DNA from: an uncultured Actinomycetes bacterium
GTDB taxonomy: Bacteria; Actinomycetota; Acidimicrobiia; Acidimicrobiales; SZUA-35
Length of the DNA: 64,000 bases
Assembly: GCA_902826025.1 (NCBI GenBank)
Contig: CADEDH010000010.1
Location: 55,146-119,145 of the forward strand
Reading direction: 5' to 3'
Shown here piece after piece: positions 26,831 to 53,370 of the stretch (positions are counted from its first letter, which is position 1; each line of letters starts with the position of its first letter). The notes below the pieces were generated by a model. The model did no database searches and had not been told where the DNA came from. It worked only from the letters and a program-made list of their open reading frames with translations. Both the position numbers and the translations under genes were made by a program.

Positions 26831-26846
26831 GCGCCCCCGGTCGCCG

Positions 26847-35101: not shown

Positions 35102-35124
35102 TCCCCGGCGGTTCGGCCGGCACG

Positions 35125-35160: not shown

Positions 35161-35346
35161 CCCCAGTCGAGCCTCGAATCCGGGTGCAGCGGTTCGGCGA
35201 CCCCTGGATCAGCCCCAAAAGGCGAATCTGACCCGCTGGCCTGTGGGCCAGTGACGGCTCAGGCAGGGCTAAACAGTGGGGCGGGTACGTGGCTGTGCTC
35301 CGGAGCCGTGACGTCGACGACGTTGTGATTTCGACTGGCGACGGCC

Positions 35347-36087: not shown

Positions 36088-36294
36088 GCGTGGAGTCCTC
36101 ACCGGCGGGTGCCGTACGCGGCATCTGGCACTCGTCCGGGATCTGGACCAATGGCCGCATGCTCACTCCCCTGACCGAACCCGACCACGGTCCCAGTGCG
36201 GTCCCACCGGGTGGCGAGCGGCCGTGGGACCCGGGGTGTCTCTGATTGCCAAATGCGATCGGTAACTGAAATCGATCTCCAATCAAGGGACAAA

Positions 36295-36495
36295 TCAGAT
36301 GATCGCCAGACTCGCCCACTCCATAGTGTCGCTCTCGTTGGTAGCTCTTACCCTCGGCTCTCCGCACGTGCAGCAGATGTACGGGTTGTACTGGAAGTAG
36401 ACGGGGGGTGCTGCAGACTGCCCCGTCGATCTCGGTACTGATGTACCGCCGACAGGAGTCGCCAGTTGACGCTGGTAGCATGCAGTACAGCTCAT
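36295..36495 (-). CDS. Possible small Cys-rich protein (66 aa) in the divergent regulator intergenic region
   Basis: MSCTACYQRQ...PPVYFQYNPYICCTCGEPRV...; a purine-rich GGAGAAGAGGG sits just upstream of the ATG at 36495. No family recognised. Overlaps the earliest possible start of the opposite-strand gene. Confidence 0.2.
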   Translation of the reverse strand: MSCTACYQRQLATPVGGTSVPRSTGQSAAPPVYFQYNPYICCTCGEPRVRATNESDTMEWASLAII

Positions 36496-39201: not shown

Positions 39202-39214
39202 CTCAGCTCCCGGC

Positions 39215-39676
39215 TCACGCCGGATGGGCCGCCATCTGTTCGACGTACTCGGTGAGTTGCCCCAGCACCTGAGGCCAGCCGGCGAGGTTTGCCTGATAGC
39301 GGGCCTCGATCTCATCGGCGGGAGCCACGACCTTCGAGAAGTCGCCCTCGGACACCTTCACGGCTGTAGCGCCGCCCTCTTCCTGCAGCCGGAACCGGAT
39401 CACCGTTGAGTTGTCGGGGGTGGCCATCGTGCCGGCGGCGCCGATGACCGCCCAGCGGAACGCGACGGCCGACAATGGCTCCAGCTCTTCGATGACAGCG
39501 GGGATGTCGCCGTGAGACCCGTGGTCGAACACCACGGAGCCGCCTAGACGAAGATCGATCCTCGTCGGCTCGCCGTTGCCAAACCATTGGCCGAGGTGAT
39601 CACCTTCGGTGAGCGCCGACCAGACCAGGGCACCCGGGGCCTTTACCACCGTTTCAAGCTCGATTGTATTTTTCAT
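39215..39676 (-). CDS. SRPBCC / AHSA1 (activator of Hsp90 ATPase homolog 1-like) family protein
   Basis: MKNTIELETVVKAPGALVWSALTEGDHLGQWFG. AAGGAG lies 8 nt upstream of the ATG. Confidence 0.75.
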   Translation of the reverse strand: MKNTIELETVVKAPGALVWSALTEGDHLGQWFGNGEPTRIDLRLGGSVVFDHGSHGDIPAVIEELEPLSAVAFRWAVIGAAGTMATPDNSTVIRFRLQEEGGATAVKVSEGDFSKVVAPADEIEARYQANLAGWPQVLGQLTEYVEQMAAHPA

Positions 39677-39747
39677 AATTATCGCTCCTTGTTTCGATAT
39701 TATTTGGCTCCTCTTGAGCCACTCTACAATGCGAAATCGTTCAGCGC

Positions 39748-40431
39748 CTATCTGAGGAGATTAAGAAGAGAATCAGACCAGGACGGGTCGTATCCATCCA
39801 GTACCGGAAACCCCGCGCCGCCCTGCGGCCCGTATCCGAGCGGGAGTGCCGGCATGCCGGTCCATCGGTAGCTCACTCCCGGATTGTGTTGCCCGTAGCC
39901 CGAGCCGGTGAAGAGGTGGGGACTGCCCTGGACGCTGGCGGTCGATGCCAGCTTCCAGTCCTGGTAGACAGCCGTCCGGCCGACGCCAACGGCGATGGCG
40001 GCGCCGAGCGCTTTCTCGTCGACCTGATCGCAGCCCGCCGCCACCTCCAGGATTACCGCCGGCAGGCTGATGCATCGATGGTCGACGTAAAAGGCCCGTC
40101 TCAGTGCGGCATCGAGCTGCTCGCTACCGCCGAGGCCACCGATCCCGGGTGACTTGGTCGCTTGTACCGCTTCGAGGGCCGGCAGCATTGTCACTGGATA
40201 GGTCTCGGCCGGTGCCGACCAGGGGCGCCAGCCGAGATCCGGTCGGCTGCCGGCGATCACCACCACCTCAGCGTCGATGATCAGCTTGGGTGTTGGGCAG
40301 GCGTTGAGCAGCTCCAACGGATACGCACGGTGATCGATGGCGAGATCGAACCCCCGCTGGCTGGCGGCGGCCCGGAGCTGAACCAGGCACAGGGTGGCCC
40401 AGGGGCAGCCGATGTCGGACCAGAATGTCAC
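39748..40431 (-). CDS. DsbA-family (FrnE/HCCA-isomerase-like) thioredoxin-fold protein
   Basis: VTFWSDIGCPWATLC is typical of the family N-terminus (M.i.iwsD..CPWC), and GSPHLF lies near the C-terminus. Start chosen at the GTG at 40431; the rest of track ORF 39748..40779 overlaps the upstream gene. Confidence 0.7.
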   Translation of the reverse strand: MTFWSDIGCPWATLCLVQLRAAASQRGFDLAIDHRAYPLELLNACPTPKLIIDAEVVVIAGSRPDLGWRPWSAPAETYPVTMLPALEAVQATKSPGIGGLGGSEQLDAALRRAFYVDHRCISLPAVILEVAAGCDQVDEKALGAAIAVGVGRTAVYQDWKLASTASVQGSPHLFTGSGYGQHNPGVSYRWTGMPALPLGYGPQGGAGFPVLDGYDPSWSDSLLNLLR

Positions 40432-40493
40432 TATTCCTGGCTCCGAGCTGAACAAGGCAGGCTCGTCGGCTTTCACCGCTTCTTGAGTAGGGT

Positions 40494-41948
40494 TCAAGCT
40501 ATTTCCAGTCGTTCTGAGCGAGCTTGGGTGGTAGTTGACCGGTTGCCGTCGGGATTGGTCTGACTTGAGGTCCAAATCCCTTTCGATCGCATCAGAAACT
40601 CGCCGATATAGCCATCGTGAGGCATTCCTGGCCGGCTCCAATGTGTCGGCTGATCGCCGATATAGAGGCTTCTTATCGTCGGATGATCGGCCAACTCGTC
40701 GAGTAGGGACTCGTCGGTGCTCAGGGCCGTGACCGCCAGGCTGTTGGCCAGTGGCGCCACACCCATCGACCGGTCCCACGGGGCGACCCAGGCGCAGGGA
40801 AACGGCAGCTCCACACCGAGGGTTCGGCTCGAGCAGTCGGGCAGAAGATGTACGGCGGGCCTCAGGACTGCGCTGCCATCACCCAGGCTGGCGACCACAC
40901 CGTCTCCGCCCAGCACCGGCTCGGCGCCCTCGGCGACCTTGCGTAGGTACTTCTCGATCGCCCGGGCTCGATGTTCAGGATGCACCGGTAGCACTGCGTC
41001 GTCGTGGTCGGGAGGCAGGCTCGGCATCGACCGGAGACGATCGGCGAGCGCCTCGGCCAGCGGACGGGGATCGCCTTCGACCAGGATGCCGCTGGCGTTG
41101 ACGCACCCGACCCCGGCACCACCGGCGACGGACTCGACGATCACGTCAAGATGCTGGCGCCAGTCGACGTCGGCGGAGACGATGATCTTCGACCGGCCGG
41201 GGCCCTGAGTGAACACCCGGTCGTCGTCGGCGTAGCGGGCCACGACCTCGTCGCCCCCGAACACCGAGGCCAGATCGGATCCTCGAAGCAGGGCATCGGC
41301 CCCGCCGTGATCGCAGGGCAGTAGCACGACATGGTCGTCGCCGAACCCGGCCGAACGCAGTGCCATCACCAGTCGTTGGGGCGTGAAGGGTTCCTGCCGT
41401 GACGGTCGCACCGCCACCCGATAGCCCAGTGCCAGCGCCTCCAGCCAACCAGCGTGGATTCCGGGGTAGTTTCCCGATGACCCGACACCGAACACCGAAC
41501 CTCTCCGAACCCAGAGCCCGGAACCGTTTGCGGTTCGGGTGTCTCGCCGATCCGATACTGCGCCGGCTGGCCGGGCGAGCTTCACGATCGAGCGCATCTC
41601 CGACATGTGCCTGGCCACCTCGTCTGCCCCGAAACGCACCACCGACACCGGGACACCGGTCGACCGGCACACCGTACGGTGGTACTCGTCCCGACTCAGC
41701 CCCGCCACCGTGTCGCTGGCGAACAGCCGGCCGGCCCGTTCGAGAGCAGCCAGCCTGTCCCCGGCGGGCAGGGGCGACGCTCGTCCCAAGGCGGCCAGCG
41801 CATGCTCGATGAAGACCGGCGGCACGAGGCTCAGTTCCGCCAGGGTGTCGTCCCTGACGTCGACGACCGGGACCCTCACTTGCATGCGTCGGGGTCCGAA
41901 TGGCCCAAGGCTGTCGATTATCGGCGGATCCCCGATGATGAGGCTCAT
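40494..41948 (-). CDS. Aldehyde-dehydrogenase-superfamily protein, LuxC/acylating-reductase-like (Cys nucleophile kept, general-base Glu apparently absent)
   Basis: TQGPGRSKIIVSADVD aligns by eye with ELGGKSPxIVxxDAD, placing Gln at the Glu position. GGAGVGCVNASGILVEG aligns with the catalytic-Cys motif. The start overlaps the upstream stop (TGATG). Confidence 0.65.
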   Translation of the reverse strand: MSLIIGDPPIIDSLGPFGPRRMQVRVPVVDVRDDTLAELSLVPPVFIEHALAALGRASPLPAGDRLAALERAGRLFASDTVAGLSRDEYHRTVCRSTGVPVSVVRFGADEVARHMSEMRSIVKLARPAGAVSDRRDTRTANGSGLWVRRGSVFGVGSSGNYPGIHAGWLEALALGYRVAVRPSRQEPFTPQRLVMALRSAGFGDDHVVLLPCDHGGADALLRGSDLASVFGGDEVVARYADDDRVFTQGPGRSKIIVSADVDWRQHLDVIVESVAGGAGVGCVNASGILVEGDPRPLAEALADRLRSMPSLPPDHDDAVLPVHPEHRARAIEKYLRKVAEGAEPVLGGDGVVASLGDGSAVLRPAVHLLPDCSSRTLGVELPFPCAWVAPWDRSMGVAPLANSLAVTALSTDESLLDELADHPTIRSLYIGDQPTHWSRPGMPHDGYIGEFLMRSKGIWTSSQTNPDGNRSTTTQARSERLEIA

Positions 41949-43042
41949 CAGTACACACCCTCAATGACTTCTTGACCCTCGAACTCCTCCACCGGTGCCA
42001 CGTCGGCAATCGAATCGCCCATGTGACCGACCGGTGACTCGATCCGCGTAGCCATGTCGCGCTCGAGGTTGTTCGGGAGCAGGAACCACTTGCTGACGTG
42101 GTTGACGATCACCTGCCCCCGCTGGCCGTGGTCGACGCGCTGGCCGGTGCCAGGATCAACGACCGCGAAGCTGACGAACGGGGCGAAGCTGTCGAAGATG
42201 CAGGGATCCCCCGGCTGGAGGCCCGGCCGCTCGACCCCGCCAGCCCCCAACGCCATGGTGTTCGCATACCCTCCGGACAGTCTCACCTTCGGGAAGACAT
42301 CGTTCGCCAGGACGGAGCGGCTGTCGGGGTCCATGTGGGCACCACCCCACTGGATGGACTCGACCTGGCCCTCCATCGCCGCCATGAACTTCGGCCGTTG
42401 CGCCATCCGCTCCAGCATTGGAGGCGTCGTCATGATGACGCCGACGTCCTGTACACCCAAGAACGTCTCGGCCTGGGTGAACAGGTGCTCGGTGTAGGCA
42501 GCCACGTCCTCGTAACGTCGCTCGGAGACCAGCTTCTTCACCCAGCGGGGATCGAGATCGATGGGGAACCACAACCCGCCCCGACGTGCCGCCACGCCTC
42601 GCCAGAGGTCGCCCACCATATGGGGGCCGCCCGGGACGAGGGCGAGCCAGTTCCGCCCGTACGGGACGTCGCAGGCGTCGAGCACCGCCGTCAACCAATC
42701 GGTGAGGAGGTCATACCACTCCTGGAGGACCACCACCCGCTTGGGGGGCCCGGTCGTGCCGCCACTTTCGAACACGCCGACGATCTTCGAGTCTCGGCAG
42801 CCCTTGGGGATCAGATCCCGGAGCTGGACCGTCCGGAGGTCGTTGGCGACGTTCGGGAACCGGAGCAGGTCCTCGAACGAGGTGACGTCGGTTCGAGGGT
42901 CGAAGTCGAGCAGGCGGGCCCGGCTCAGCCAGAACGGGGAACCGGTCTCGGGTGAGAAGTGCCAGTCCATGGCGGCTCGGAGGAAGTCCGGGTCGTGAAC
43001 CGGGTTCACCAGCGGGTCATGGGACGTTGCAGTGGTGGGCAT
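41948..43042 (-). CDS. Short ANL-superfamily adenylate-forming enzyme (PaaK / coenzyme-F390-synthetase / LuxE-like)
   Basis: VFESGGTTGPPKRVV (P-loop-like AMP motif) and WGGAHMD. 364 aa. AGGAGA RBS upstream of the ATG at 43042. Confidence 0.7.
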   Translation of the reverse strand: MPTTATSHDPLVNPVHDPDFLRAAMDWHFSPETGSPFWLSRARLLDFDPRTDVTSFEDLLRFPNVANDLRTVQLRDLIPKGCRDSKIVGVFESGGTTGPPKRVVVLQEWYDLLTDWLTAVLDACDVPYGRNWLALVPGGPHMVGDLWRGVAARRGGLWFPIDLDPRWVKKLVSERRYEDVAAYTEHLFTQAETFLGVQDVGVIMTTPPMLERMAQRPKFMAAMEGQVESIQWGGAHMDPDSRSVLANDVFPKVRLSGGYANTMALGAGGVERPGLQPGDPCIFDSFAPFVSFAVVDPGTGQRVDHGQRGQVIVNHVSKWFLLPNNLERDMATRIESPVGHMGDSIADVAPVEEFEGQEVIEGVY

Positions 43043-43079
43043 CGTAGTTCTCCTGTCGTAGGTTCGGATTGGTGATGCT

Positions 43080-44621
43080 TCAGGTCGCGAGGCGGAGTGG
43101 TCGTTGAGCCCGCTCGTGGTAGCGCGAGGCCAGAGCGTCGACGATCCCCGGATCCACCATCGGTAGGCGGCGGGAGAAGGAGGACAGTGCATCGACGAAC
43201 TCACGCTCCATCTCCCGCTCGTCGGCCAGGACCGGGCTGCAGTCATCGACGATCAGGCGACCGCCGACGAGCACCGCTTCCACGTCGGCTGAGCATCCGG
43301 CCGTCAGCAGCGATTCGAGCGGCCGCGGATTGAGCACATAGCGCCAGTCATCGACGGGGATCAGGACGACATCACCCTCGTTCCCGACCCGCAACGAGCC
43401 CAAGCCCGCCCAGCCCAGACCACGAGCGGCGTCCGCCGTGCCCATGGCCAGCGCTCGACTGGGCGACACCAGGGTGTTGTCGCCGGCGATCTCGTTGTGG
43501 CCCTGCCACGCCGCCCGCATGTTCTCCAACATGCCGCCGAGTAGCACGGGGGCCCCGTCGGTCGATACCGATACCCGGGCGCCGGCCTGGACCTGGCCGG
43601 TCAACAGCTTCGTCCCGCTCATGACCGACTCGCCGGAGCTCCCGTACTTGGCCGGCGAGTGGTCGAAGTGAACGCCGGCGCCGACCAGCTGGCTCACCTC
43701 GCCGTCGTCCAGGTAGGAGCAGTGGACCGCCGTGAGCTGGCTGGAGAGGATCCCCAGCCGGCGGAGCCGCTCGACCGGGCGGGCTCCGAAATAGGAGGCG
43801 ACGAAGTCGGCCTCGTTCCGCAACGCACCCAGGTGGGTGGCAAACCGCGTCTGATGCGAAGCCACGATGGCAGCCAGGCCCTCGCCCAGCTCGTCGGACA
43901 TGTTGGTCGTGTAGACGGCGGACGGGCGGGCCATCAACCGGCCACTGGGGTCTTCGGCACAAAGCCGGAGCACCTCGTCGAGCTCGCTCAGCACTGCCTC
44001 CACCTCGACCACCCTCGTCGGCTTGGCCTCACCTGGGCGGCACACCACGTCGGCGGCCCATGTGCTGATGGCACCCCGCATGCCGAGCTTCAGCACGCCG
44101 GCGGCCAGCGCCTCCGGCCGATTGAGCGAACCGAGATCTCCCACTGCCGTTACCCCGGTCCTCAACTGCGTCCACAGCGAATAGCGGGCGATCGCCTCCG
44201 CCTCGGCTGGTGTGAGGGCGTCGATCATCTCGCGTGATCGGCAGAACATTGCCGAGATCGTGTGCATGTCCCCACCGCCGGCAAAGAAGCCGGGCTGATC
44301 GGCACAGTCGTTGGGCGCCCGGGTCGCCGCCCCGAAGGCCATGCGGGAGGCGAACATGTCATGCCAATGGCCGTTGACGAAACCAGGAAGTACCAGTCGA
44401 CCGCGGGCGTCGACGGTCGACGTACGACTCTTCCCTTGGCGAATGATGGTCTGGAATGATCGTCGCACTTCGGAGGTGGCCCCGACCTCGGCGATCCGAC
44501 CGTCGACGATCAGCACCGACCCCTCGGGAATGATCGTGTCGTCCTCATCGGCGGTGTAGACGAAGCCCCCGTCGACGAGGACGACGTCGGCTTCCGCGTC
44601 GTCTCGATGTGAGCTGATCAT
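43080..44621 (-). CDS. Amidohydrolase-superfamily metalloenzyme (chlorohydrolase/deaminase-like fold; candidate NatAM/BomN-type benzoxazole cyclase)
   Basis: LPGFVNGHWHD (HxH), FATHLG, TAVHCSYL and VSVSTDGAP (Asp) together form a complete metal-ligand set. The ATG overlaps the upstream stop (ATGA at 44618-44621). Confidence 0.8.
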   Translation of the reverse strand: MISSHRDDAEADVVLVDGGFVYTADEDDTIIPEGSVLIVDGRIAEVGATSEVRRSFQTIIRQGKSRTSTVDARGRLVLPGFVNGHWHDMFASRMAFGAATRAPNDCADQPGFFAGGGDMHTISAMFCRSREMIDALTPAEAEAIARYSLWTQLRTGVTAVGDLGSLNRPEALAAGVLKLGMRGAISTWAADVVCRPGEAKPTRVVEVEAVLSELDEVLRLCAEDPSGRLMARPSAVYTTNMSDELGEGLAAIVASHQTRFATHLGALRNEADFVASYFGARPVERLRRLGILSSQLTAVHCSYLDDGEVSQLVGAGVHFDHSPAKYGSSGESVMSGTKLLTGQVQAGARVSVSTDGAPVLLGGMLENMRAAWQGHNEIAGDNTLVSPSRALAMGTADAARGLGWAGLGSLRVGNEGDVVLIPVDDWRYVLNPRPLESLLTAGCSADVEAVLVGGRLIVDDCSPVLADEREMEREFVDALSSFSRRLPMVDPGIVDALASRYHERAQRPLRLAT

Positions 44622-45940
44622 GCTGCTCGACCCCGACCGAACACGACGGCGTCATCCCAGCTCTCACCGGGTCCGTACAGCGATCTCGGCTTGCGGGACT
44701 GGGCCGGGTCCAAGAGGAGCTCGGAGGGTACCAGGGTGCCCTCCGGCACCACGTCGACCGAGCTCGGTACGCCGAGGTGCTCACGTATGCCGCTCAAGAG
44801 CTTCCCGGCCACGAGGGCCGGCGACGCTGAGGACTCGACCTGAACCACCAGTTGATCCAGCTCGGCCCGAGAACGCCAGAACATGACGCCGAGCTCCGGG
44901 GGGAGAGAGAACACCACCTGTTCCACGTCGAGTTGGGTGACCGCCCTGCCCTTGACGGGGTAGCCCTGCGCCGACCGACCGAGTACCTCGATGATCGGGA
45001 GCTTCCACCCGCACGCACAATCCTCGTAGGAGAGGCGCACGAGATCCTCGACGTTGTATCGCACCAGTGGCATGGCGCGGAGATGGAGTGGGGTGAGCAC
45101 CAGCTCGCCCTCGCCATCTCTCCTGATCTGACCGGTCGCCTGGTCGAGTACCTCGCCCTTGACCCGGTCGGCCCACAGGTGGAGGCGGTCGGCCTCGCAC
45201 CTGCCGGCCAAGCTCCCCAGCTCGGAGCACCCGTACTCGTCGATGACGGGGACGCCCCAGATGCCGGAGATCCTCTGCCGGCGAGCCGGCGACAGGGGTT
45301 CGCCGCCCACGAACAGGGCCCGGAGCGAGGGGAAGTCGACCTTGGGATCCAAGCCGGCCGCGGCGGCGGTCGCCGCCCACAACAGACAGTCCGTCGGATT
45401 CGACCAGGTCAACGTGACATCGAGCTCCCGCAGGACCCGTACGACACGGGTGAACGGCATCAATGACGAGCGATTGTCACCAGCGATCGCCGTGGCCCCC
45501 GCCGATTGGGCGGTTCGGGCCACCAGGTGAGCCGCCATACCCAGCGCGTACGGACTACGAACGAACACCACGTCGCTCCCCGTGATGCCGAAGGTCTTGC
45601 GGGCGAAGCGATCGGTCAGGTCCTGCCAGTCAGACGCACAGTAGTAGGCCGGCGTCGGTGCACCGCTGGACCCGCTCGACTCGAAATACGAGTCCAGCTC
45701 GGCTCGTGGAACGGCCAGCAACTCGAAGGGGTAGCTGGTCGCCAGGTCCGACTTGCTCGTGGGCGGTAGGGCCCGAAAGTCCTCCAGCGTCCGGGGCTGG
45801 TTGCAGCCACGGCGCCAGGACTCGGCGTAGTGTGGGGCGTTGGCGGCCCGACCGAGTACCGAAGGGATCAGCGCGTCCTGGATCTCCGTCAGCTCTTCGA
45901 ACGTCGCCCAGTCGCCGATAGTGGGCAGTGGCGAACTCAT
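44618..45940 (-). CDS. Phenylacetate-CoA-ligase / coenzyme-F390-synthetase-like adenylating enzyme (candidate NatL2/BomJ-type aryl ligase)
   Basis: FESSGSSGAPTPAYY, FVGGEPLSP, IDEYGCSELG, and a C-terminal PaaK-like domain. GGAGGGG RBS. The ATG overlaps the upstream stop (ATGA at 45937-45940). Confidence 0.8.
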   Translation of the reverse strand: MSSPLPTIGDWATFEELTEIQDALIPSVLGRAANAPHYAESWRRGCNQPRTLEDFRALPPTSKSDLATSYPFELLAVPRAELDSYFESSGSSGAPTPAYYCASDWQDLTDRFARKTFGITGSDVVFVRSPYALGMAAHLVARTAQSAGATAIAGDNRSSLMPFTRVVRVLRELDVTLTWSNPTDCLLWAATAAAAGLDPKVDFPSLRALFVGGEPLSPARRQRISGIWGVPVIDEYGCSELGSLAGRCEADRLHLWADRVKGEVLDQATGQIRRDGEGELVLTPLHLRAMPLVRYNVEDLVRLSYEDCACGWKLPIIEVLGRSAQGYPVKGRAVTQLDVEQVVFSLPPELGVMFWRSRAELDQLVVQVESSASPALVAGKLLSGIREHLGVPSSVDVVPEGTLVPSELLLDPAQSRKPRSLYGPGESWDDAVVFGRGRAA

Positions 45941-47853
45941 GTAATTTCCCCTCCATTGGCCGTGGCGACAAGGTCGACGCCGACAAGCGCTGCGCATTCG
46001 GGGACGAGCAGCTCAACGAGAGAGTCATGCAACACGCTGGCACCGTCGTACGAGAGCACTGACTCGGGATGAAACTGATAGGAGCGGAACGTCGGTCCAG
46101 ACAGGGCGTGGACTTCACCAGTCGGCTCGTCCCGGCTCATATCGACCAGGCCGCCCGCCTTGAGTCGATAGCTGGATGCCTCAGCGCTCCAGGCGCTGAA
46201 GCTGTTGTAGAAGCCCACCGACACCGTCTTGCCGAATAGGTCGACCAGTTGCGCTCGACCCTGATTCGGAGTCTTGCGTCGCCGCACCGGGAGGCCGAGC
46301 TGGGCGCAGACGATCTGATGGCTGAGGCACACAGCCACGAACGGCTTTCTCATCGCCAGCAGCTGGCTGGCGATGGTGTGCAACCGGGCAACTCTTAGGC
46401 TATTCCAGTCCAGCGGACTCCCGGGGCCAGGCCCAAGCACCACCACGTCGTAGCCATTGAGGTTGTAGTCGTCGGCCCAGCGGCGGCGGGTCACGTCGAG
46501 GCCGAGCATGTTGAGCTGATACTCCAGCATTGAGGTGAAGTCGTCCTCGGCATCGATGACGAGAACGGACCGACCATCGAGCACCGCCCCCGGGTGGCGT
46601 TGGGCGTGTGGCTCACGCCAAAAGCCAGCGATGTTCCGGTTGCGGTTGGCCAGCATGTCTCGTATCTCGGCGTCGTCGCCCAATCGCTCCCGGCCCCTCC
46701 CCCGGAGCGCGGCCAGCATGGTCTCGGCCTTCGCCCTGGTCTCGCCGGCCTCGTGCTCCGGCACCGAATGTCGCACGATCGTCGAGCCAACGCTCACCCG
46801 CACAACCCCCGAGGGGTTGATGTCGGCGAAGCGGATCAAGATGGCGGAGTCCATGTTCACATCGCCGTCGACCAGTGCAATCACCCCGGCGTAATAGCCG
46901 CGCCCTTCGGGTTCGTGTCGGGCCACTACCCGGCACGCGTTCTCGATCGGGCTACCGACCACCGTCGGCGCAAACATCGTGGCCCGGAGAAGCTCGGCCG
47001 GACTACGGGACGTGACACCCTCGATGACGTACTCCGTGTGGGCCAGTCGGGCCATTTCCCGCAGGTGCGGCCCCACCAGGGCGATACCGGAGTCACACAC
47101 CGTTGTCATCATCTTCAGTTCCTCGTCCACCACCATGAAGAGCTCGTCTGACTCCTTACCGTCTCGAAGGAAATCGATTACGCCTTCACGGCTCGGCCCG
47201 GCCGCGGGATAGCAGTACGTCCCGCTGATCGGATTCATCTGCAATCGACCTCCCGACAGCACAAGGTGACTCTCAGGCGTCGCCCCCACCAGGGCCCGAT
47301 CTTCTAGGAAGACGAGAAAGATCCAGCGGGCTTCCGGCTCGTCCTCCAGAAGTCGGCCGAACAGAGCCAGTGCATGTCGGGCGCTGTAGTCATCGATCTC
47401 GCAGACGTAGCTCCGTTTAAGCACGAAGTTCGCCCCCTCGCCGTCCTCGATCTCTCTCTGGACCGCCTCTACCTCGGTGCAATACTCCGTGTCGCTACGA
47501 TCGAAGCCGACCTCCGCAATCTTGAAGTCGATACCACTGACGTAGCGGAGCAGATCGGCTTTCGCTATGGTCGTTGCCTCGTCAATTTCCATTCGGATCA
47601 GAGGTGACTTATCGTCAACGCAACAGTATCCGCGCTCGACCACCTGCCGGTACGGGACGACAACGAGCTGAGGCCCCGTCGTGGCCGCACTTATCTCGTC
47701 GAGTCGACTGAGCTCGCTCACCGGGCCCCGCAGAACCTCCACGGTTTCTTCGTGTGCCCCGCGCCGCCATACAAGGGCGAAGGGCTCTACGTTCTCGCCA
47801 TCACCAATGAGGTCCTGGACAAAGTCTTCAATGTTGCGGGTGGACTGTTTCAT
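45937..47853 (-). CDS. Fused chorismate-utilising (MST) plus glutamine amidotransferase enzyme, PhzE-type 2-amino-2-deoxyisochorismate (ADIC) synthase
   Basis: MST core: GATPESHL...NPISGT...DELFMVVDEELKMM...AHTEYVIEG...FAPTVVGSPIENA...GRGYYAGV. C-terminal GATase: VVVLGPGPGSP...FVAVCLSHQ...YQFHPES. 638 aa, which fits the PhzE-like fusion architecture. Confidence 0.85.
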   Translation of the reverse strand: MKQSTRNIEDFVQDLIGDGENVEPFALVWRRGAHEETVEVLRGPVSELSRLDEISAATTGPQLVVVPYRQVVERGYCCVDDKSPLIRMEIDEATTIAKADLLRYVSGIDFKIAEVGFDRSDTEYCTEVEAVQREIEDGEGANFVLKRSYVCEIDDYSARHALALFGRLLEDEPEARWIFLVFLEDRALVGATPESHLVLSGGRLQMNPISGTYCYPAAGPSREGVIDFLRDGKESDELFMVVDEELKMMTTVCDSGIALVGPHLREMARLAHTEYVIEGVTSRSPAELLRATMFAPTVVGSPIENACRVVARHEPEGRGYYAGVIALVDGDVNMDSAILIRFADINPSGVVRVSVGSTIVRHSVPEHEAGETRAKAETMLAALRGRGRERLGDDAEIRDMLANRNRNIAGFWREPHAQRHPGAVLDGRSVLVIDAEDDFTSMLEYQLNMLGLDVTRRRWADDYNLNGYDVVVLGPGPGSPLDWNSLRVARLHTIASQLLAMRKPFVAVCLSHQIVCAQLGLPVRRRKTPNQGRAQLVDLFGKTVSVGFYNSFSAWSAEASSYRLKAGGLVDMSRDEPTGEVHALSGPTFRSYQFHPESVLSYDGASVLHDSLVELLVPECAALVGVDLVATANGGEIT

Positions 47854-47876
47854 TTCGTGCCTTTCACATTCAAAGC

Positions 47877-48533
47877 TCAGAACAGCTCGACGATTGTTCT
47901 GAAGTCGATCAGTTGAGCGCATCTTGTTGACGCATAGTTGAGAGCCAGCTGATGGTGTTGGGGCGAGAAGTCGGCCACGGCGTCACCAACGAGAAACGTC
48001 TCGAGGTCCCAGCTGAAGGCTTCACACGCGGTCATCAGAACGCCTATATGTGCATAGACGCCGCACACGATCAGTTGGTCTCGCCCTGCAGCCTGGATCC
48101 GCTCCAGGAGGTCGGATCGATGGAATGCGCTGTACCTCCATTTGGTGACAATCCAGTCATCAGCACTGGGTCGGAGGGCGGAAGTCACTCCGCGATCGTT
48201 CTCATCCGACGTCATGCCCCGACCCCAGAAGGCATTGAGCAAGCCTCGGTCTTCGTCGGACATGGAGCCCGGTTGACAGCTGTAGGCAATCGGCACGCCG
48301 GCGTTGACGCAGGCGGAACGGAGGGCCGCGATGTTGGCCACGAGATCACCGACCGGCGGCTGGCCGCCGAAGCCACGGAGGAAGAAGTTCTGCATGTCAT
48401 GGATGAGCAGAATCGACCGGAGAGGATCAGGCTGCCAGGAGGCGGGAGACGGGGGAAACGTCGACCGGTCAGGCATCGGATAGGGCACCGTTTCCAGTGC
48501 CGAACTGACCAGGAGCTCAGTTCCCTCAGACAC
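47877..48533 (-). CDS. Isochorismatase-family hydrolase (PhzD-type, ADIC to DHHA)
   Basis: YPMPDRSTFPPSPASWQPDPLRSILLIHDMQNFF...VPIAYSCQPG...VTKWRYSAF...LIVCGVYAHIGV. Confidence 0.85.
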   Translation of the reverse strand: MSEGTELLVSSALETVPYPMPDRSTFPPSPASWQPDPLRSILLIHDMQNFFLRGFGGQPPVGDLVANIAALRSACVNAGVPIAYSCQPGSMSDEDRGLLNAFWGRGMTSDENDRGVTSALRPSADDWIVTKWRYSAFHRSDLLERIQAAGRDQLIVCGVYAHIGVLMTACEAFSWDLETFLVGDAVADFSPQHHQLALNYASTRCAQLIDFRTIVELF

Positions 48534-49317
48534 CGAGCGTCGCTCCGCCGTCCACGGTGACGTCCTGCAGCGTCATGTGTCTGCTCTTGTCGCCCAGGAG
48601 GAAGAGGACCACGGCCGCGATGTCCTGGGGACTGGCCAGTCGGCCGATCGGGATTCCGAGTCGGAAGGCCTCCGGATCACCGGCGATCGTCGTATGGAGC
48701 TTGTCGGCTCCGTCCCAAGATCGGGACAGCATCGGCGTCAACGTCGAGCCCGGCGAAACGACGTTGCACCGGATGCCGAGCGGCGCCACGGCCAGGCCGA
48801 GGCTTTTGGCGTAGGATGTGGCGGCCGCCTTGGATGCCGAGTAGGCGGCCATACCGGCCCGGGGAACCCGGGCCGCGTTGGAGGAAATGGTCACGATGCA
48901 TCCGGTGCGCCGCGGCAGCATTCGCCTCACTACTTCCTGCGAGACCGCCACCACCCCTCGGGCGTTCACCGCCATGCAGTAGTCCCAGTCGGCCAGGTCC
49001 AACTCGACCGGGTCGGCGGTGGTCAGCACGCCGGCGGCGTTGACAAGCAGGCCGATCGGCCCGACCTCGCGCTCGACGCGCCCCACCGTGATTCGGACCG
49101 ACTCGATGTCGGTCACGTCGGTCGCGAAGTCGACCACCTGGGACCCACCGGCCACGTGGCCCAGGAGTCGGGCCAAGGCGTCACTATCGCGGTCCACGGC
49201 GGCGACGGTGACCCCGTCGTCGACGAGGGCCTGGACGACGGCCGAACCGACTCCGCCCGCCGCCCCGGTGACCAGTGCGACCGGTCGCTGGCCGTCGCGG
49301 CTGTGGTGACCCGTCAT
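48526..49317 (-). CDS. Short-chain dehydrogenase, EntA/DhbA-type 2,3-dihydro-2,3-dihydroxy(amino)benzoate dehydrogenase
   Basis: VALVTGAAGGVGSAV, NAAG, YSASKAA (YxxxK). The ATG at 49317 overlaps the DAHP synthase stop (ATGA). Its 3' end overlaps the isochorismatase start by 8 nt. Confidence 0.8.
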   Translation of the reverse strand: MTGHHSRDGQRPVALVTGAAGGVGSAVVQALVDDGVTVAAVDRDSDALARLLGHVAGGSQVVDFATDVTDIESVRITVGRVEREVGPIGLLVNAAGVLTTADPVELDLADWDYCMAVNARGVVAVSQEVVRRMLPRRTGCIVTISSNAARVPRAGMAAYSASKAAATSYAKSLGLAVAPLGIRCNVVSPGSTLTPMLSRSWDGADKLHTTIAGDPEAFRLGIPIGRLASPQDIAAVVLFLLGDKSRHMTLQDVTVDGGATLGV

Positions 49318-50369
49318 GCGATCGTCGACAGAGTGGGGGCCGCGATCCACCGTCGCATGGCTGTGGCGACGGGCCGTAGCTCGGCCATCAAGCTCCTGAA
49401 CTGTTCCGGCAGGATTGCCTGGGCGCCGTCGCATTTGGCGGTCGCCGGGTCGGGGTGGACGTCGATGATGACGCCGTCGGCCCCGGCCGCGAGGGCGGCC
49501 AGCGTCATGGGGGCGATCAGGTTTGGGGCTCCGGTGGCATGGCTGGGATCGACGACCACCGGAAGATGCGACCGTTGCTTGACCAGCGCGACGGCGGCCA
49601 GATCAAGGGTGAAACGGAGCGAAGGATCGAAGCTGCGGATGCCACGCTCGCACAGCACGACGTTCTCGTTGCCCTCCACTAGGATGTATTCAGCCGAGCC
49701 CAGCCACTCGTCGATCGTGCTGCCGAACCCCCGTTTGAGGAGGACGGGCACGTCGCTGCGTCCGAGTTCGGTCAGCAGGCTGTAGTTCTGAGCGTTGCGC
49801 GCCCCGACCTGCAACATGTCGACGTGGTCGACGAGCGCCTCGACGTCCCGGGCGTCGACGACCTCGGACACCACCGGGAGGCCGGTCGTGGCCCGGATCT
49901 CCGACAGGATCTGCAGGCCGTCCGAACCCATCCCCTGGAAGGAGTAGGGCGACGTGCGTGGCTTGAACGCGCCGCCTCGGAGCACCGATGCCCCTTCAGC
50001 TCGCACCGCCCACGCGATCCGGCTGATCATGTCGGAGCTCTCGACCGCGCACGGTCCGGCGATCACCGTGAATCCCGACCCCCCGATCTGAACTCCACCG
50101 ACGTCGACCACGGTGTCACCGGCCCGGGAGCCGCGGTCGACGAGAGGAGCGACGTCGGCGACCGTCACGACCTCGGTGTCTCGGCCAAAGGCGTCCAGGT
50201 CGAACCGCTCGTGATCAACGAGGCCGACGGCCAAGATGGCGTCCTCACCGTTCACCCGAACCGCCAACACCGTGGTAGCGCCGGCTGAGCGCAGCGTGCT
50301 TGCGATCTGGTCGTTCGCTTTACCGGCGGGTGAGACCTCAAGGTCCACCCCTCTGATGAGCACAGCCAT
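49314..50369 (-). CDS. 3-deoxy-7-phosphoheptulonate (DAHP) synthase, type I-beta with an N-terminal regulatory domain
   Basis: VIAGPCAVES...VLRGGAFKPRTSPYSFQG...MLQVGARNAQN...LLKRG...VVVDPSH. Confidence 0.85.
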   Translation of the reverse strand: MAVLIRGVDLEVSPAGKANDQIASTLRSAGATTVLAVRVNGEDAILAVGLVDHERFDLDAFGRDTEVVTVADVAPLVDRGSRAGDTVVDVGGVQIGGSGFTVIAGPCAVESSDMISRIAWAVRAEGASVLRGGAFKPRTSPYSFQGMGSDGLQILSEIRATTGLPVVSEVVDARDVEALVDHVDMLQVGARNAQNYSLLTELGRSDVPVLLKRGFGSTIDEWLGSAEYILVEGNENVVLCERGIRSFDPSLRFTLDLAAVALVKQRSHLPVVVDPSHATGAPNLIAPMTLAALAAGADGVIIDVHPDPATAKCDGAQAILPEQFRSLMAELRPVATAMRRWIAAPTLSTIA

Positions 50370-50491
50370 AGTGAGTCCTTCAGTTGGTCAAACGGTTGTT
50401 CGCAGCACTGCGCAGCTCGCCGCAGCGGCAGCAGTCATGTCGTCTCGGTGGGTCGAACTCCACCATCGATCCCAGGCCATCGACAGGTGCA

Positions 50492-50505
50492 AAAGATCGA
50501 TCTTT
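50492..50505. promoter_or_regulatory. Perfect 14-nt palindrome in the divergent promoter region of the biosynthetic operon
   Basis: AAAGATCGATCTTT is its own reverse complement. It lies in the 335-nt gap between the DAHP synthase (-) and the FAD monooxygenase (+). CCATCGA occurs twice just upstream (50463-50469 and 50477-50483). Confidence 0.3.
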
Positions 50506-50704
50506 CTGCCCACCAAGTGGGATGACCAGATGGCTACTCCCACCGGCCCATTTGGCCGCACCCACGGCTGATCATCGGCCCCTTGCGCCCGGCGTCGTTC
50601 GCCGGGTTAATGAGGTGCGGAGAGACCGCTCCGACCGTCTCGTCCGATTTGTGTTGCCGGTCGCCTCGATCGGCAACTGGCCAGAGCACAACGGAGGCCC
50701 CAGG

Positions 50705-52324
50705 ATGAACCAGCACAGCACCTTGACCGATCGGCCGCTGACGGCGGTGGACGGACTGCCAGTAGTGGTCGTCGGGGCGGGCCCGGTCGGCTCGATTCTG
50801 GCTCTGGAGCTGGCCCGCCATGGAGTCCGGAGCATCCTCGTCGAGCGGCGCCTGGAGCCTTCGAGCCATCCCAAGATGGACTTCGTCAACTCCCGCAGCA
50901 TGGAATTCCTGCATCGCCTCGGGCTGGCCGACCGCCTGTGGGGCGACGGCGTTCCCACGGACCAGGACTTCAGGTTCATCTGGACGGCATCGTTCGGCGA
51001 TGACCTCATCGCTGACTGGTCGTCGGCATCGGTTGACGACCTGCGGCGGGAGATGGCCCGGGTCAACGACGGGACATTGCCACGGGTGCCGTATCTACGA
51101 GTCATCGGCTCCCGGTTGGAGCAGATCACGCGCCGAGCCTGTCTGGACAGTCCCTTGATCGACCTCCGGCTCGGAACGACGTTCGAGGCCCTCGACCAGG
51201 ATGGGAGTGGCGTGACGGTCACTATCACCGACGAGACCGGTCGGTCAGCTTCCGTCCGGGGCTCGTATCTGGTGGGTTGTGACGGGTCCGGCAGTCGGGT
51301 TCGGGACGCGCTTGGTATTCACAACGACGAGATCGGACCCGTCTCTCAGAATTGCAATGTGTACTTCCGCAGCAACGACCCTCGGCTGCTGAAGTACGGG
51401 CGATTCTTTCTCAGTGTGGTTGGCAGCGGGGTGACTCTTGTCACTCGTGATGGTGGCGATACCTGGACTGGTGTGTTTCCCCGATTCGACGGTGCTCCTT
51501 TCACCGACGATCCGCTACCTGTGCTGTGGAGAATGATCGGCCTCGACTTCGTCGTCGACGAAGTGTTGTCGGTGGCCAACTGGGAGAATCGACTGGCTAT
51601 AGCCACCACCTATCGTGAGGGCCGGGCCTTCATCGCCGGCGACTCAGCCCATCAGTTCTTTCCCTCGGGCGGCCACGGCGCCAATACTGGCATCGGCGAC
51701 GCCATCGATCTTGGCTGGAAGCTGGCTGCGACTCTCAGCGGTTGGGCTGATCCCGACCTGTTGCTTTCGTACGAGATCGAACGGCGACCGGTCGCTCAGT
51801 TCAATCGGGAGATGTGCTTCAGCCTCATGGAGGTATGGCGCCGGTTCATCTTCTTGAACAAGGACGGGGCGACATCATCCCAGATCGCCGGATACCTCCA
51901 CCAGCAGAAATTCCATGCCAACAACCTAGGGATCCACCTCGGCTACCGGTATCGGCAGTCGCCGGCCATCTGCCCCGACACCGATCCAGAGCCCGCCTGG
52001 CATTCCGACCGGCTGGTGGCATCGTCGTGGTCGGGGTCGCGGGCGCCCAGCATGCGCAAGGCCGACGGGACCGAGATCTACGATCTGCTCGGGCCCGAGT
52101 TCACCCTGCTCGACTTCTCCCGCGACGGCGCCGGTGAGTCGCTTGCCCACGCGGCCAGCAGCCTCGGCGTCCCCCTTTGCTGGATAACCCTCGACGAGCC
52201 ACTGCTGGCGACAACATACGAGCGTGCCCTGGTCCTGATCCGACCCGATCATCACGTCGCCTGGCGTGGTGACGAACCGCCGGCCGATGCGGTCCGTACG
52301 TTGGCTGGCCTGGTCGGACGATGA
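50705..52324 (+). CDS. FAD-dependent aromatic-ring monooxygenase (PheA/TfdB group A hydroxylase)
   Basis: VVVVGAGPVGSILALELARHG (GxGxxG), LVGCDGSGSRVR (DG motif), AFIAGDSAHQFFPSGGHGANTGIGDAIDLGWKL (GD motif). ACGGAGG RBS upstream of the ATG at 50705. Confidence 0.85.
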   Translation: MNQHSTLTDRPLTAVDGLPVVVVGAGPVGSILALELARHGVRSILVERRLEPSSHPKMDFVNSRSMEFLHRLGLADRLWGDGVPTDQDFRFIWTASFGDDLIADWSSASVDDLRREMARVNDGTLPRVPYLRVIGSRLEQITRRACLDSPLIDLRLGTTFEALDQDGSGVTVTITDETGRSASVRGSYLVGCDGSGSRVRDALGIHNDEIGPVSQNCNVYFRSNDPRLLKYGRFFLSVVGSGVTLVTRDGGDTWTGVFPRFDGAPFTDDPLPVLWRMIGLDFVVDEVLSVANWENRLAIATTYREGRAFIAGDSAHQFFPSGGHGANTGIGDAIDLGWKLAATLSGWADPDLLLSYEIERRPVAQFNREMCFSLMEVWRRFIFLNKDGATSSQIAGYLHQQKFHANNLGIHLGYRYRQSPAICPDTDPEPAWHSDRLVASSWSGSRAPSMRKADGTEIYDLLGPEFTLLDFSRDGAGESLAHAASSLGVPLCWITLDEPLLATTYERALVLIRPDHHVAWRGDEPPADAVRTLAGLVGR

Positions 52325-53370
52325 GCCCGGGCCTAGCCGGCGACGCCATCCCGAACTGGTGGTCCGGGACCAGATGGTCGCCCGAACGGCTGGCGAGAGC
52401 GGAGGCCGACTACATACTCGGGCTCCTGGATCGTCGCCGTGAAGAGGTGGTGGCGGGGTCCTGGACGGTTCGATGTCCGGAAGCCATGGTGCGCACGGTG
52501 ATGGAGCACCACGTGCATGAGGTGGTGAGCCTGTCGTGGGGCGATGATCCGGGCCGCCAGGTTCTCGATGCCTACCTCTCCGCCATGACCCTGATCGGTG
52601 CCGACCGCGGCCCGGGCGAGGCGTTCGTCCAGTCTCTCGACCTGGGAGCCAACGTGCAGGCGGCCGTCGATCGGGCCGGGCTCCCGGAAGGTGCCGCCCG
52701 GTTCGTGGTCGAGCGCCATCGACGGCTCGGCTTCGCCGGTCCTGACGAGTTGCTTGGCATGGCCTTCTACCGATGGGAGATGCTAGCTGTTCATCTGGAA
52801 GCGCTCGCCCGGCTGACAGGGATCAAGGGGGCTCCACGCTTCAGTGGCGAGCCGCTCCGGCTCATCACATCGGGCTGCTACTGGAGCCTCCGGGCCCGCC
52901 GTCTACTCGATCTTTCACTGGCGCTGCAGCGGCGCGGCCCGCCAGGATGGCGGTCGGTCCTTCGGACGCTGGAGCGGTCGATCGCTGAGGACCAGCTCCT
53001 GGAGCACAGCATCGCCGAGTCGGCGGCCGGCCGCCCGGTCCCCCCGGTCGCCTTCCTCCTGGACCAGCCAGGCCGGACCACGTTCGACGGGGTCCGTGGA
53101 GCGATGCTCCGGGTTCTGGACCAGCAGGGGGCGGCCAGCATCCCGGAGCTCGCCCACGAGCTCGGCGTGGACGCCGAGACCCTGGAGCTGGCCGCCGCCA
53201 GTGCCTTCACCGACTCGTTGATCGTGAGGCGGCTGTCGCCCGGTAGCGGGCCCACCTTCGCTCTGTCCCCTAGGGGCGAGGCCGAACTCGCGGCCTGGCG
53301 GGTAGACGTCAGTGAGGCCCGCCGCGCCGCCGGCGCCGGTCGACGTAGCTTCGGCGAGTTGGCTGAGTAG
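52321..53370 (+). CDS. Hypothetical protein with a probable C-terminal winged-helix domain
   Basis: The ATG overlaps the monooxygenase stop (ATGA). The C-terminus reads GAASIPELAHELGVDAETLELAAASAFTDSLIVRRL...ALSPRGEAEL, which is MarR/wHTH-like. The N-terminal 230 aa are unassigned. Confidence 0.5.
   Translation: MSPGLAGDAIPNWWSGTRWSPERLARAEADYILGLLDRRREEVVAGSWTVRCPEAMVRTVMEHHVHEVVSLSWGDDPGRQVLDAYLSAMTLIGADRGPGEAFVQSLDLGANVQAAVDRAGLPEGAARFVVERHRRLGFAGPDELLGMAFYRWEMLAVHLEALARLTGIKGAPRFSGEPLRLITSGCYWSLRARRLLDLSLALQRRGPPGWRSVLRTLERSIAEDQLLEHSIAESAAGRPVPPVAFLLDQPGRTTFDGVRGAMLRVLDQQGAASIPELAHELGVDAETLELAAASAFTDSLIVRRLSPGSGPTFALSPRGEAELAAWRVDVSEARRAAGAGRRSFGELAE

Follow-up and report, generated by a model that had tools for sequence, protein, structure and literature searches.

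A candidate 3-hydroxyanthranilate-derived benzoxazole gene cluster with an EhpF/EhpG-like reductase pair in an uncultured Acidimicrobiales bacterium

The gene content of a 64,000-nt stretch of DNA from an uncultured Acidimicrobiales bacterium (contig CADEDH010000010.1, positions 55,146 to 119,145; hereafter the window) was analysed. The genes lying at about 35.3-52.3 kb are likely to form a biosynthetic cluster for a benzoxazole that is derived from 3-hydroxyanthranilate (3-HAA), built from two 3-HAA units and then tailored. An earlier note, made from the sequence alone, had described nine co-directional minus-strand genes running from 50369 down to 39748 and a flavin adenine dinucleotide (FAD)-dependent hydroxylase diverging on the plus strand from 50705. 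The listing of open reading frames (ORFs) and a frame analysis of GC content at third codon positions (GC3) bore out both, the hydroxylase occupying 50705-52324. The junctions read on the minus strand exactly as described, with ATGA overlaps at 49314-49317, 45937-45940 and 44618-44621, TGATG at 41946-41950 and an 8-nt overlap at 48526-48533 (GTGTCTGA); the gaps, given as 23-62 nt, measured 23, 37 and 62 nt. The gene starts were identical in independent calls of two Logan assemblies with the same sequence (ERR3089232 and ERR3089227), the only ones from which the exact cluster sequence was recovered. Pfam, NCBIfam and PDB searches agreed with the assignment of each of the nine genes and of the hydroxylase. 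The unit had been drawn too small, as a tenth co-directional gene, of the SRPBCC/AHSA1 family, lies 71 nt downstream at 39215-39676. The hydroxylase, the intergenic region and the ten genes are given below.

50705..52324, plus strand: RebC-like group-A FAD aromatic monooxygenase with a thioredoxin-like C-terminal domain (Pfam FAD_binding_3 and Rng_hyd_C)
50370..50704, no strand: divergent intergenic region, presumed promoter (335-nt gap between the start codons of operon and hydroxylase)
49314..50369, minus strand: type I-beta DAHP synthase (DAHP, the 7-phosphate of 3-deoxy-D-arabino-heptulosonate), first operon gene (Pfam DAHP_synth_1, E 7.6e-74; NCBIfam PRK08673, 420 bits, cutoff 335)
48526..49317, minus strand: DhbA/EntA-type short-chain dehydrogenase/reductase (SDR), predicted to convert 2,3-dihydro-3-hydroxyanthranilate (DHHA) to 3-HAA (NCBIfam TIGR04316 dhbA_paeA; Pfam adh_short)
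47877..48533, minus strand: isochorismatase-family hydrolase, predicted to convert 2-amino-2-deoxyisochorismate (ADIC) to DHHA (Pfam Isochorismatase, E 3.8e-35)
45937..47853, minus strand: PhzE-type fused ADIC synthase (Pfam Chorismate_bind and GATase; PDB PhzE 3r74)
44618..45940, minus strand: NatL2/AjiA1-type PaaK-like ATP-dependent ester-forming ligase (PDB AjiA1 6wuq, NatL2 6siw)
43080..44621, minus strand: NatAM-type zinc amidohydrolase, putative benzoxazole-forming heterocyclase (PDB NatAM 6sj0)
41948..43042, minus strand: EhpF-like truncated adenylating enzyme of the acyl-CoA synthetase, peptide synthetase adenylation domain and luciferase (ANL) superfamily, without the C-terminal ANL domain (PDB EhpF 3l2k/3hgu, E 5e-82)
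40494..41948, minus strand: EhpG/GriD-like reductase of the aldehyde dehydrogenase (ALDH) superfamily (Pfam Aldedh, E 2e-17; TGATG overlap with the EhpF-like gene)
39748..40431, minus strand: cytoplasmic DsbA-fold protein with a single-Cys CPWA motif, similar to FrnE, kappa glutathione S-transferase (GST) and 2-hydroxychromene-2-carboxylate (HCCA) isomerase (weak Pfam DSBA match, E 0.0019)
39215..39676, minus strand: SRPBCC/AHSA1 small-ligand-binding protein, tenth operon gene (Pfam AHSA1, E 1.6e-15; ribosome-binding site AAGGAG)

The limits of 39748-52324 given earlier were likewise too narrow. The conserved unit covers window 35347-52324 and adds the SRPBCC gene and a LuxR-type regulator gene, because this gene content matches that of a syntenic metagenomic locus, L012 (related loci carry such numbers throughout). 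L012 encodes the hydroxylase, DAHP synthase, SDR, isochorismatase, ADIC synthase, ligase, amidohydrolase, EhpF-like, EhpG-like, DsbA-like, SRPBCC and LuxR proteins, of which eleven are 52-66% identical to the window proteins and the LuxR protein 38%. Since the twelve genes are kept in essentially the same order, the gene arrangement is not due to chance. Judged by L012, the genes to the right of 52324 would not be part of the cluster family.

The PDB search for the fused ADIC synthase gave PhzE (3r74) as the best match, with an E value of 4.7e-155 over residues 25-614. The structures of TrpE and PabB (anthranilate and aminodeoxychorismate synthases) matched at 1e-16 or weaker, and by these scores the enzyme is classed as PhzE-type rather than as an anthranilate synthase. 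The isochorismatase is 52-57% identical to its counterparts in L004, L010 and L012; in L009 only two fragments were matched, below the coverage filter of the locus comparison. The preference of the isochorismatase and the SDR for DHHA or for 2,3-dihydro-2,3-dihydroxybenzoate is not readable from sequence, and EntA and EntB are able to replace the corresponding enzymes in caboxamycin biosynthesis.

The ligase (440 aa) matched AjiA1 (6wuq, E 1e-124) and NatL2 (6siw, E 1e-122) from end to end at 413-420 bits, against 108-160 bits (E 1e-30 to 1e-45) for true PaaKs in the PDB search. Its global identity with NatL2 is 46.7%. The zinc site C248/H254/C308/C310 (NatL2 numbering) is kept in the window ligase and in 7/7 aligned ligases of related loci; this site has been described as unique to NatL2 compared with PaaK, and the residue roles used here are those of Song et al. 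(PMC7204872). The nucleotide and donor residues K62, S87, S88, E235, Y236, G237 and K418 are identical to those of NatL2, and the changes of S238 to Cys and T239 to Ser are conservative. The acceptor 3-HAA pocket retains R156 and W178, and its changes T128S, T135A, A211G and A212G are small-residue substitutions. In NatL2, R156 forms a salt bridge with the carboxylate of the acceptor 3-HAA, and K418 is contributed by the partner subunit (PMC7204872).

The amidohydrolase (513 aa) matched NatAM (6sj0) with 437.5 bits and an E value of 7e-130, and it is 51% identical to MichA. The other amidohydrolases in the PDB reached at most 67 bits, the runner-up being an uncharacterised amidohydrolase/deaminase at E 1e-17, and all NCBIfam deaminase models stayed far below their cutoffs. 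Residues H85, H87, H263, D355, H300, K325 and E331 correspond to H75, H77, H253, D345, H290, K315 and E321 of NatAM and are all identical; Y227 of NatAM is likewise kept. Among the aligned family members H77, H290, K315, E321 and D345 are invariant (121/121), and H75 and H253 are His in 120/121. Mutation of H290 abolishes benzoxazole formation by NatAM (PMC7204872). The neighbour-joining tree of these 121 homologues, computed with no bootstrap, placed the window amidohydrolase in a clade of 21 members, every one from a metagenome or a metagenome-assembled genome (MAG), with NatAM and MichA outside. The ligase and amidohydrolase genes are joined by the overlap at 44618-44621 and show the same adjacency and order in L004, L009, L010, L012, L014 and L254-L256. 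The earlier note had considered a benzoxazole the best hypothesis for a 3-HAA cassette followed by such a ligase and amidohydrolase, and the scores and conserved residues support it. Grouping with deaminases or true PaaKs had been named beforehand as the outcome that would speak against it; the scores favour NatL2 and NatAM.

No polyketide synthase (PKS), non-ribosomal peptide synthetase or carrier protein was detected in any window ORF scanned, which is in accordance with the same note. There is no room for an acyl carrier protein (ACP) gene, as the intergenic gaps within 39.2-50.4 kb are all 71 nt or shorter, and no NatL1-type ligase, ACP, ketosynthase (KS) III-like amide synthase, PKS or salicylate synthase was found in the cluster. 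From the missing PKS, ACP and KS-like amide synthase it was concluded there that the architecture is undescribed and the second aryl unit a different one, which the evidence does not support. This conclusion fails because NatL2 and NatAM alone dimerise 3-HAA and because the microechmycin (mich) cluster has the same layout, and the conserved acceptor pocket (Arg156, Trp178) argues against a different second unit. In vitro, NatL2, NatAM and ATP suffice to turn 3-HAA into the homodimer benzoxazole (PMC7204872). The mich cluster of Micromonospora sp. SCSIO 07395, free of PKS, NRPS and ACP, yields 3-HAA-dimer benzoxazoles (PMC9864271). Like the window cluster it has a DAHP synthase, a DhbA-type dehydrogenase, an isochorismatase, an ADIC/anthranilate-synthase-type enzyme, the ligase MichE and the amidohydrolase MichA. 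The window gene content thus matches michA-E and michG, and the scaffold-forming genes are those for 3-HAA together with the L2 ligase and the AM amidohydrolase. We infer the 3-HAA homodimer core by analogy with the pairs NatL2/NatAM, BomJ/BomN and MichE/MichA.

Several points weigh against this reading. The position of NatAM R87 is occupied by Gly in the window amidohydrolase and in 10 other clade members; among the 121 family members this position is K/R in 93 and Gly in 11. The Arg87 loop of NatAM, which is flexible, forms a salt bridge with the carboxylate of the acceptor (alcohol-side) ring (PMC7204872); the window protein has an Arg four residues upstream, at position 83. The pocket is also altered at M103F and F119S, and since R87G, M103F and F119S all change the acceptor pocket, the ester substrate may differ from that of NatAM. 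The SDR scored 297.9 bits with TIGR04316 dhbA_paeA, just below the cutoff of 300. The best NCBIfam match of the ligase was BagE/FevW (bagremycin ester synthetase) with 511 bits, below the cutoff of 800, and ligases of the family that matches BagE/FevW can, by analogy, halt at the ester. Homologues of NatAM can also form other heterocycles, as judged from MxcM, which makes an imidazoline (PMC9400959). The roles proposed below for the hydroxylase, the DsbA-like and the SRPBCC protein are suggested by fold and co-occurrence, and the substrate of the EhpF/EhpG-like pair could be free 3-HAA instead of the benzoxazole acid.

The altered pockets could point to a hetero-aryl benzoxazole and not to the 3-HAA homodimer: the ligase would couple 3-HAA either with a different, undescribed aryl acid supplied by another part of the genome or with 3-HAA hydroxylated by the FAD monooxygenase. 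The acceptor-side changes on both enzymes (T128S, T135A and A211G/A212G in the ligase; R87G, M103F and F119S in the amidohydrolase) would fit such a substrate, NatL2 and NatAM accept 3-hydroxybenzoate analogues (PMC7204872), and the hydroxylase, being conserved with the ligase/amidohydrolase pair, could act before coupling. This explanation is nevertheless unlikely: the ligase retains E235 on the donor side and R156 and W178 on the acceptor side, every characterised L2/AM pair dimerises 3-HAA, and the cluster has no second aryl-acid pathway in the form of a salicylate synthase, a PKS or a 3-amino-5-hydroxybenzoate (AHBA) synthase. The matches to the bagremycin family could indicate a product other than a benzoxazole, either a stable ester or amide as in bagremycin and ferroverdin, with another role for the amidohydrolase (for instance hydrolysis or closure of another kind of heterocycle), or plain overproduction of 3-HAA or DHHA. 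Besides the BagE/FevW match of the ligase, the DAHP synthase matches the BagF/FevY model, and the NatAM family includes the imidazoline-forming MxcM. Both scores lie far under their cutoffs (511 against 800 for BagE/FevW, 347 against 700 bits for BagF/FevY), all the catalytic residues of NatAM are kept, H290 included, and the translationally coupled ligase and amidohydrolase genes are adjacent in the same order in every clade locus examined, which makes this outcome highly improbable. The 3-HAA homodimer benzoxazole is thus retained as the preferred core.

The other known benzoxazole systems were compared with the window cluster. Those of nataxazole, AJI9561 and A33853 (NatL2 and NatAM, AjiA1, BomJ and BomN) share the homologous ligase and amidohydrolase and the 3-HAA supply from chorismate through ADIC and DHHA. 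To attach a third acid (6-methylsalicylate, salicylate or 3-hydroxypicolinate), they use a second ligase together with an ACP and a KS-like enzyme or PKS. The window differs in having no third-acid genes and in having Gly at the position of NatAM Arg87. The caboxamycin (cbx) cluster has the 3-HAA cassette and a NatAM-type amidohydrolase, CbxE, in common with the window, but differs in its NatL1-type ligase, ACP, KS III and salicylate synthase; the window ligase is of the ACP-independent NatL2 type. The mich cluster tailors with the O-methyltransferase MichF, whereas domain searches revealed no methyltransferase between 35.3 and 52.3 kb of the window; mich in turn has no FAD hydroxylase, EhpF/EhpG reductase, DsbA-like or SRPBCC gene.

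The short ANL protein (364 aa) aligned end to end with EhpF 3l2k, residues 18-364 on 21-366, and its homologues in L012 and L010, at 60-62% identity, adjoin an ALDH-like gene. Over 94% of its length, the ALDH-like protein of the window shares 33% identity (E 5e-57) with the product of the gene directly after ehpF in the ehp clusters of Pantoea agglomerans; with the equivalent protein of a Burkholderia ubonensis phenazine-type cluster it shares 50%. The identities of the pair to Pantoea EhpF and EhpG are 41% and 33%. The Cys in GxGC(V/I)NA is kept in 5/5 aligned ALDH-like sequences, and, as read by eye, QGPGRSK replaces ELGGKS, the motif of the ALDH general-base Glu. The likeness to the ehp (D-alanylgriseoluteic acid) cluster lies in a truncated ANL enzyme with an ALDH-superfamily partner directly after it, the pathway drawing in both cases on ADIC and DHHA. 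GriC and GriD, an AMP-forming enzyme and an ALDH-like reductase, convert 3-amino-4-hydroxybenzoate to the aldehyde through the acyl-AMP (PMC10179220). On this functional precedent, the most fitting reading of the pair is a two-component aryl-carboxylate reductase that depends on ATP. The added ligase/reductase pair reported previously is therefore real and is now specified as EhpF/EhpG-type.

Two other identities of the pair and its surroundings were considered and set aside. LuxE and LuxC gave no Pfam match even at E 5, and EhpF/EhpG proved specific. A phenazine cluster, as suggested by PhzE, the isochorismatase and EhpF/EhpG, was rejected because no PhzF, PhzA/B or PhzG was present in the window ORFs scanned; all of these appear in the annotation of the Pantoea and Burkholderia loci used for comparison. 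Because the genes for PhzF, PhzA/B and PhzG are missing here, the substrate cannot be a phenazine dicarboxylate.

The pair could act early, reducing 3-HAA to 2-amino-3-hydroxybenzaldehyde, which would be used as the acceptor or diverted to phenoxazinone or Schiff-base chemistry, so that the benzoxazole acid would never be free. GriC and GriD act in this manner in grixazone biosynthesis, ahead of the oxidative coupling, and in L010 both ligases are without R156 and a multicopper oxidase lies nearby. The window ligase, on the other hand, keeps R156, the binder of the acceptor carboxylate, and domain searches found no phenoxazinone synthase or copper oxidase in its cluster. EhpF and EhpG were reportedly proposed, in 2010 by Bera et al., to act on the finished tricyclic phenazine dicarboxylate, which also counts against an early reduction. 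On balance this course is very unlikely, and reduction of the finished benzoxazole acid is preferred. A correlation of Gly87 with EhpF/EhpG could be listed for the early reduction, as Gly87 is found in 3/3 clade loci with EhpF/EhpG, yet it also occurs in 2/6 loci that show no EhpF/EhpG (L009 and L255); it is suggestive and was not used as evidence.

The hydroxylase had its best PDB match in RebC (2r0c, E 7.6e-66). Its likeness to the RebC/StaC flavin monooxygenases is one of fold and family, and their known substrates, the indolocarbazoles, are unrelated. Homologues 58-63% identical adjoin the ligase/amidohydrolase genes of L004, L009, L012 and L014; L254, L255 and L256 have the FAD_binding_3 and Rng_hyd_C domain pair. 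The hydroxylase had earlier been noted as divergent; its position stands, and it is now seen as a hallmark of the amidohydrolase clade instead of an incidental neighbour. A search of the literature for benzoxazole clusters already described with a RebC-like monooxygenase gave nothing relevant.

The DsbA-like protein is 55-64% identical to many actinomycete proteins annotated as DsbA family oxidoreductase, and homologues occur in L012 and L014. Its AlphaFold2 model (mean predicted local distance difference test score, pLDDT, 86.6) gave FrnE 5xwh (template modelling score, TM, 0.59), GST kappa, DsbM and HCCA isomerase as top Foldseek matches. The likeness to FrnE, kappa-GST and HCCA isomerase is one of fold, and their known substrates (disulfides, glutathione conjugates and chromenes) are unrelated. 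WSD is invariant in 12/12 aligned members and is followed by (I/L/T)(G/T)CPW(A/G), the window form being WSD(I)GCPWA; CxxC is absent from all twelve, which have a single Cys. This single Cys suggests an activity like that of kappa-GST or HCCA isomerase rather than a disulfide oxidoreductase. The single-Cys DsbA-fold family is very widespread in actinomycetes, with more than 500 matches, among which no characterised member was found. The SRPBCC protein has homologues, 49-52% identical, beside the ligase/amidohydrolase genes of L004, L012 and L014; L254, L255 and L256 likewise contain an AHSA1 gene.

A pathway can be proposed from these assignments. The family assignments, conserved catalytic residues and synteny on which it is built were established by homology. 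The DAHP synthase would raise the shikimate flux, the PhzE-type enzyme would convert chorismate to ADIC, the isochorismatase would convert ADIC to DHHA, and the DhbA-type SDR would oxidise DHHA to 3-HAA. The NatL2-type ligase would adenylate one 3-HAA and esterify it to the 3-hydroxyl of a second 3-HAA, and the amidohydrolase would close the oxazole ring of this ester; the ring would form with no PKS, ACP or third aryl acid. The RebC-like flavoprotein would then hydroxylate an aromatic ring, and the EhpF/EhpG-like pair would use ATP and NAD(P)H to reduce an aryl carboxylate to the aldehyde, the benzoxazole 4-carboxylate being the likeliest substrate. The DsbA-fold and SRPBCC proteins may act on or bind redox-active aminophenol or quinone-imine species, and the LuxR-type protein and a 911-aa protein described below may regulate the cluster. 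For the hydroxylase, reductase, DsbA-like and SRPBCC steps, we only infer the substrates, the order and the regiochemistry.

The distribution of the cluster family was examined. The closest relatives of the amidohydrolase (54-66% identity) were all from metagenomes or MAGs, and no close copy of the cluster was found in species-representative genomes, in which the best amidohydrolase match was 53-54% identical. Co-occurrence was counted over 86 loci with NatAM homologues, the window itself excluded. The isochorismatase, ADIC synthase and SDR genes occur together in 76 of the 86, and a NatL2-type ligase occurs in 33. Over the same loci, the hydroxylase, EhpF/EhpG, DsbA-like and SRPBCC genes are restricted to the window's clade, and they are found in none of the 76 loci from species-representative genomes (L178-L253). 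Nine clade loci, the window included, were examined, of which 8 have the RebC-like hydroxylase and 7 an SRPBCC protein. L004, L009, L254, L255 and L256 each combine the 3-HAA genes, ligase, amidohydrolase and hydroxylase, with an SRPBCC gene in all except L009; in L010 the 3-HAA genes, ligase and amidohydrolase are accompanied by a second ligase and EhpF/EhpG. In L014 the ligase, amidohydrolase, hydroxylase, DsbA-like and SRPBCC genes stand beside a tryptophan dioxygenase and a kynureninase, not the chorismate route; a single cluster family thus seems to have exchanged one source of 3-HAA for another.

The related loci showed further features. In L010 (JGI 3300044807, 2794-16270) two NatL2-like ligases flank the amidohydrolase, with Gly and Ala in place of the lost acceptor-carboxylate Arg156; EhpF/EhpG lie on the opposite strand, and a type II DAHP synthase and the multicopper oxidase are found upstream. 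The L010 product is possibly tris-aryl or oxidatively coupled. In L014 and L015 (JGI 3300049142 and 3300053176, 4449-18363) the core adjoins tryptophan 2,3-dioxygenase, hydrolase and kynureninase genes, and the further genes encode a nitroreductase, an indole-3-glycerol phosphate synthase (IGPS)-like protein, a second NatL2-like ligase and an O-methyltransferase. O-methyltransferases are present in L014, L254 and L255. Directly after the cluster of L254 (ENA ERZ25039539), fragments of Tn3-family and DDE transposases lie at 15426-19938, which is consistent with mobility of the cluster family.

The benzoxazole ring-forming chemistry and the PKS/ACP-free layout are already known, and the understanding of ring formation is unchanged by this locus. 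The novel features are a tailoring set that brings an EhpF/EhpG reductase into a benzoxazole setting, a clade with conserved hydroxylase and SRPBCC genes, and the uncultured Acidimicrobiales host. A survey of NatAM/ClxD neighbourhoods has revealed many cryptic benzoxazole loci with varied tailoring (PMC9400959). The present locus may represent an uncharacterised, metagenome-only benzoxazole clade marked by the ligase, the amidohydrolase, the RebC-like hydroxylase and SRPBCC, in which the window branch recruited EhpF/EhpG and a single-Cys DsbA-fold enzyme and makes a new chemotype instead of a microechmycin- or nataxazole-like acid. This is put forward as a serious though tentative possibility, held with somewhat less than even conviction. 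The candidate chemotypes are a hydroxylated 2-arylbenzoxazole-4-carbaldehyde and a quinone-imine or thiol-adduct derivative. If the proposal is true, it would mean a new benzoxazole chemotype from an uncultured member of the Acidimicrobiia.

Benzoxazoles are a privileged pharmacophore. To our knowledge, few bacterial benzoxazole pathways have been characterised (nat, bom, cbx, aji, mich and clx), and the Acidimicrobiales are not known for benzoxazole chemistry. The locus adds an orphan benzoxazole-type cluster from an uncultured lineage of this order. It would be the first pairing of benzoxazole machinery with an EhpF/EhpG-type reductase and could give an aldehyde handle for biocatalysis.

Beyond the operon and the hydroxylase, three further ORFs were considered.

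35347..36102, minus strand: LuxR-family regulator (Pfam GerE helix-turn-helix, E 1.6e-18; weak Response_reg, E 2.4e-4)
36466..39201, plus strand: 911-aa ORF, putative regulator of the type of signal transduction ATPases with numerous domains (STAND), from motifs in the translation
52321..53370, plus strand: orphan 349-aa ORF (its ATG overlaps the hydroxylase stop as ATGA; coding-like GC3 of 0.81)

For the LuxR-type protein NCBIfam gave NarL/MadR-like response regulators, and its 38%-identical homologue lies at the same end of the L012 cluster. The 911-aa ORF had no Pfam or NCBIfam match. Its translation shows the P-loop GSGSGKS close to the N-terminus as well as a C-terminal SARP/OmpR-like stretch resembling a winged helix (LFGEFAV...LIKMLALHEGPVHIEKLIDALWPD), and it is probably a STAND-type pathway regulator. 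It sits between the SRPBCC and LuxR genes and has no counterpart in L012, which makes it a locus-specific insertion. In its place L009 carries an AfsR-like regulator of 1264 aa. The 349-aa ORF gave a weak DUF3050 match only (E 3e-4) and no homologue among 5.8 billion proteins or by NCBIfam or PDB; the exhaustive search of representatives gave weak partial matches only. It is absent from all related loci compared, and its membership of the cluster is uncertain. No match to the sigma-70 consensus was found in 50370-50704, a scan that is uninformative for this kind of genome, and the promoter and terminator scans of the region were likewise uninformative.

The surroundings of the cluster were compared with related genomes. 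A flanking helicase and a radical-SAM gene have counterparts of 93% and 94% identity, respectively, in an uncultured Actinomycetota MAG; with Acidimicrobiales/Ilumatobacteraceae MAGs, both share 75-92%. The locus of that closest MAG, L098, runs collinear with window 23706-35119 (88-93% nucleotide identity). The two part at about 35.1 kb, immediately ahead of the LuxR gene, and L098 has none of the window genes of 35.3-64 kb. The GC content of the window is about 0.70 and drops to 0.62-0.67 over about 33-52 kb (about 33000-52300), the low-GC stretch beginning about 2 kb left of the synteny break. The break in synteny with L098, together with the GC dip, suggests that the cluster lies in a variable or acquired region, of which the left edge only appears supported by synteny. 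No tRNA genes that could serve as island markers were found in the window.

Three further observations were made in the left part of the window. About 2 kb of it (27107-29156) is missing from the otherwise collinear L098 and spans most of an N,N-dimethylformamidase-beta-like ORF at 26847-28682 (DMFA2_C, E 6e-77). At 17031-19598 on the minus strand an 855-aa protein combines Ser/Thr kinase, periplasmic-binding/ANF-receptor and C-terminal OmpA domains, which is an unusual architecture. At 8914-14591 on the plus strand, long ORFs in different frames overlap (8914-12273, with an AAA_16 ATPase domain, and 11037-14591), and this pair may be a frameshifted gene for a large STAND/AAA regulator or include a spurious high-GC ORF.

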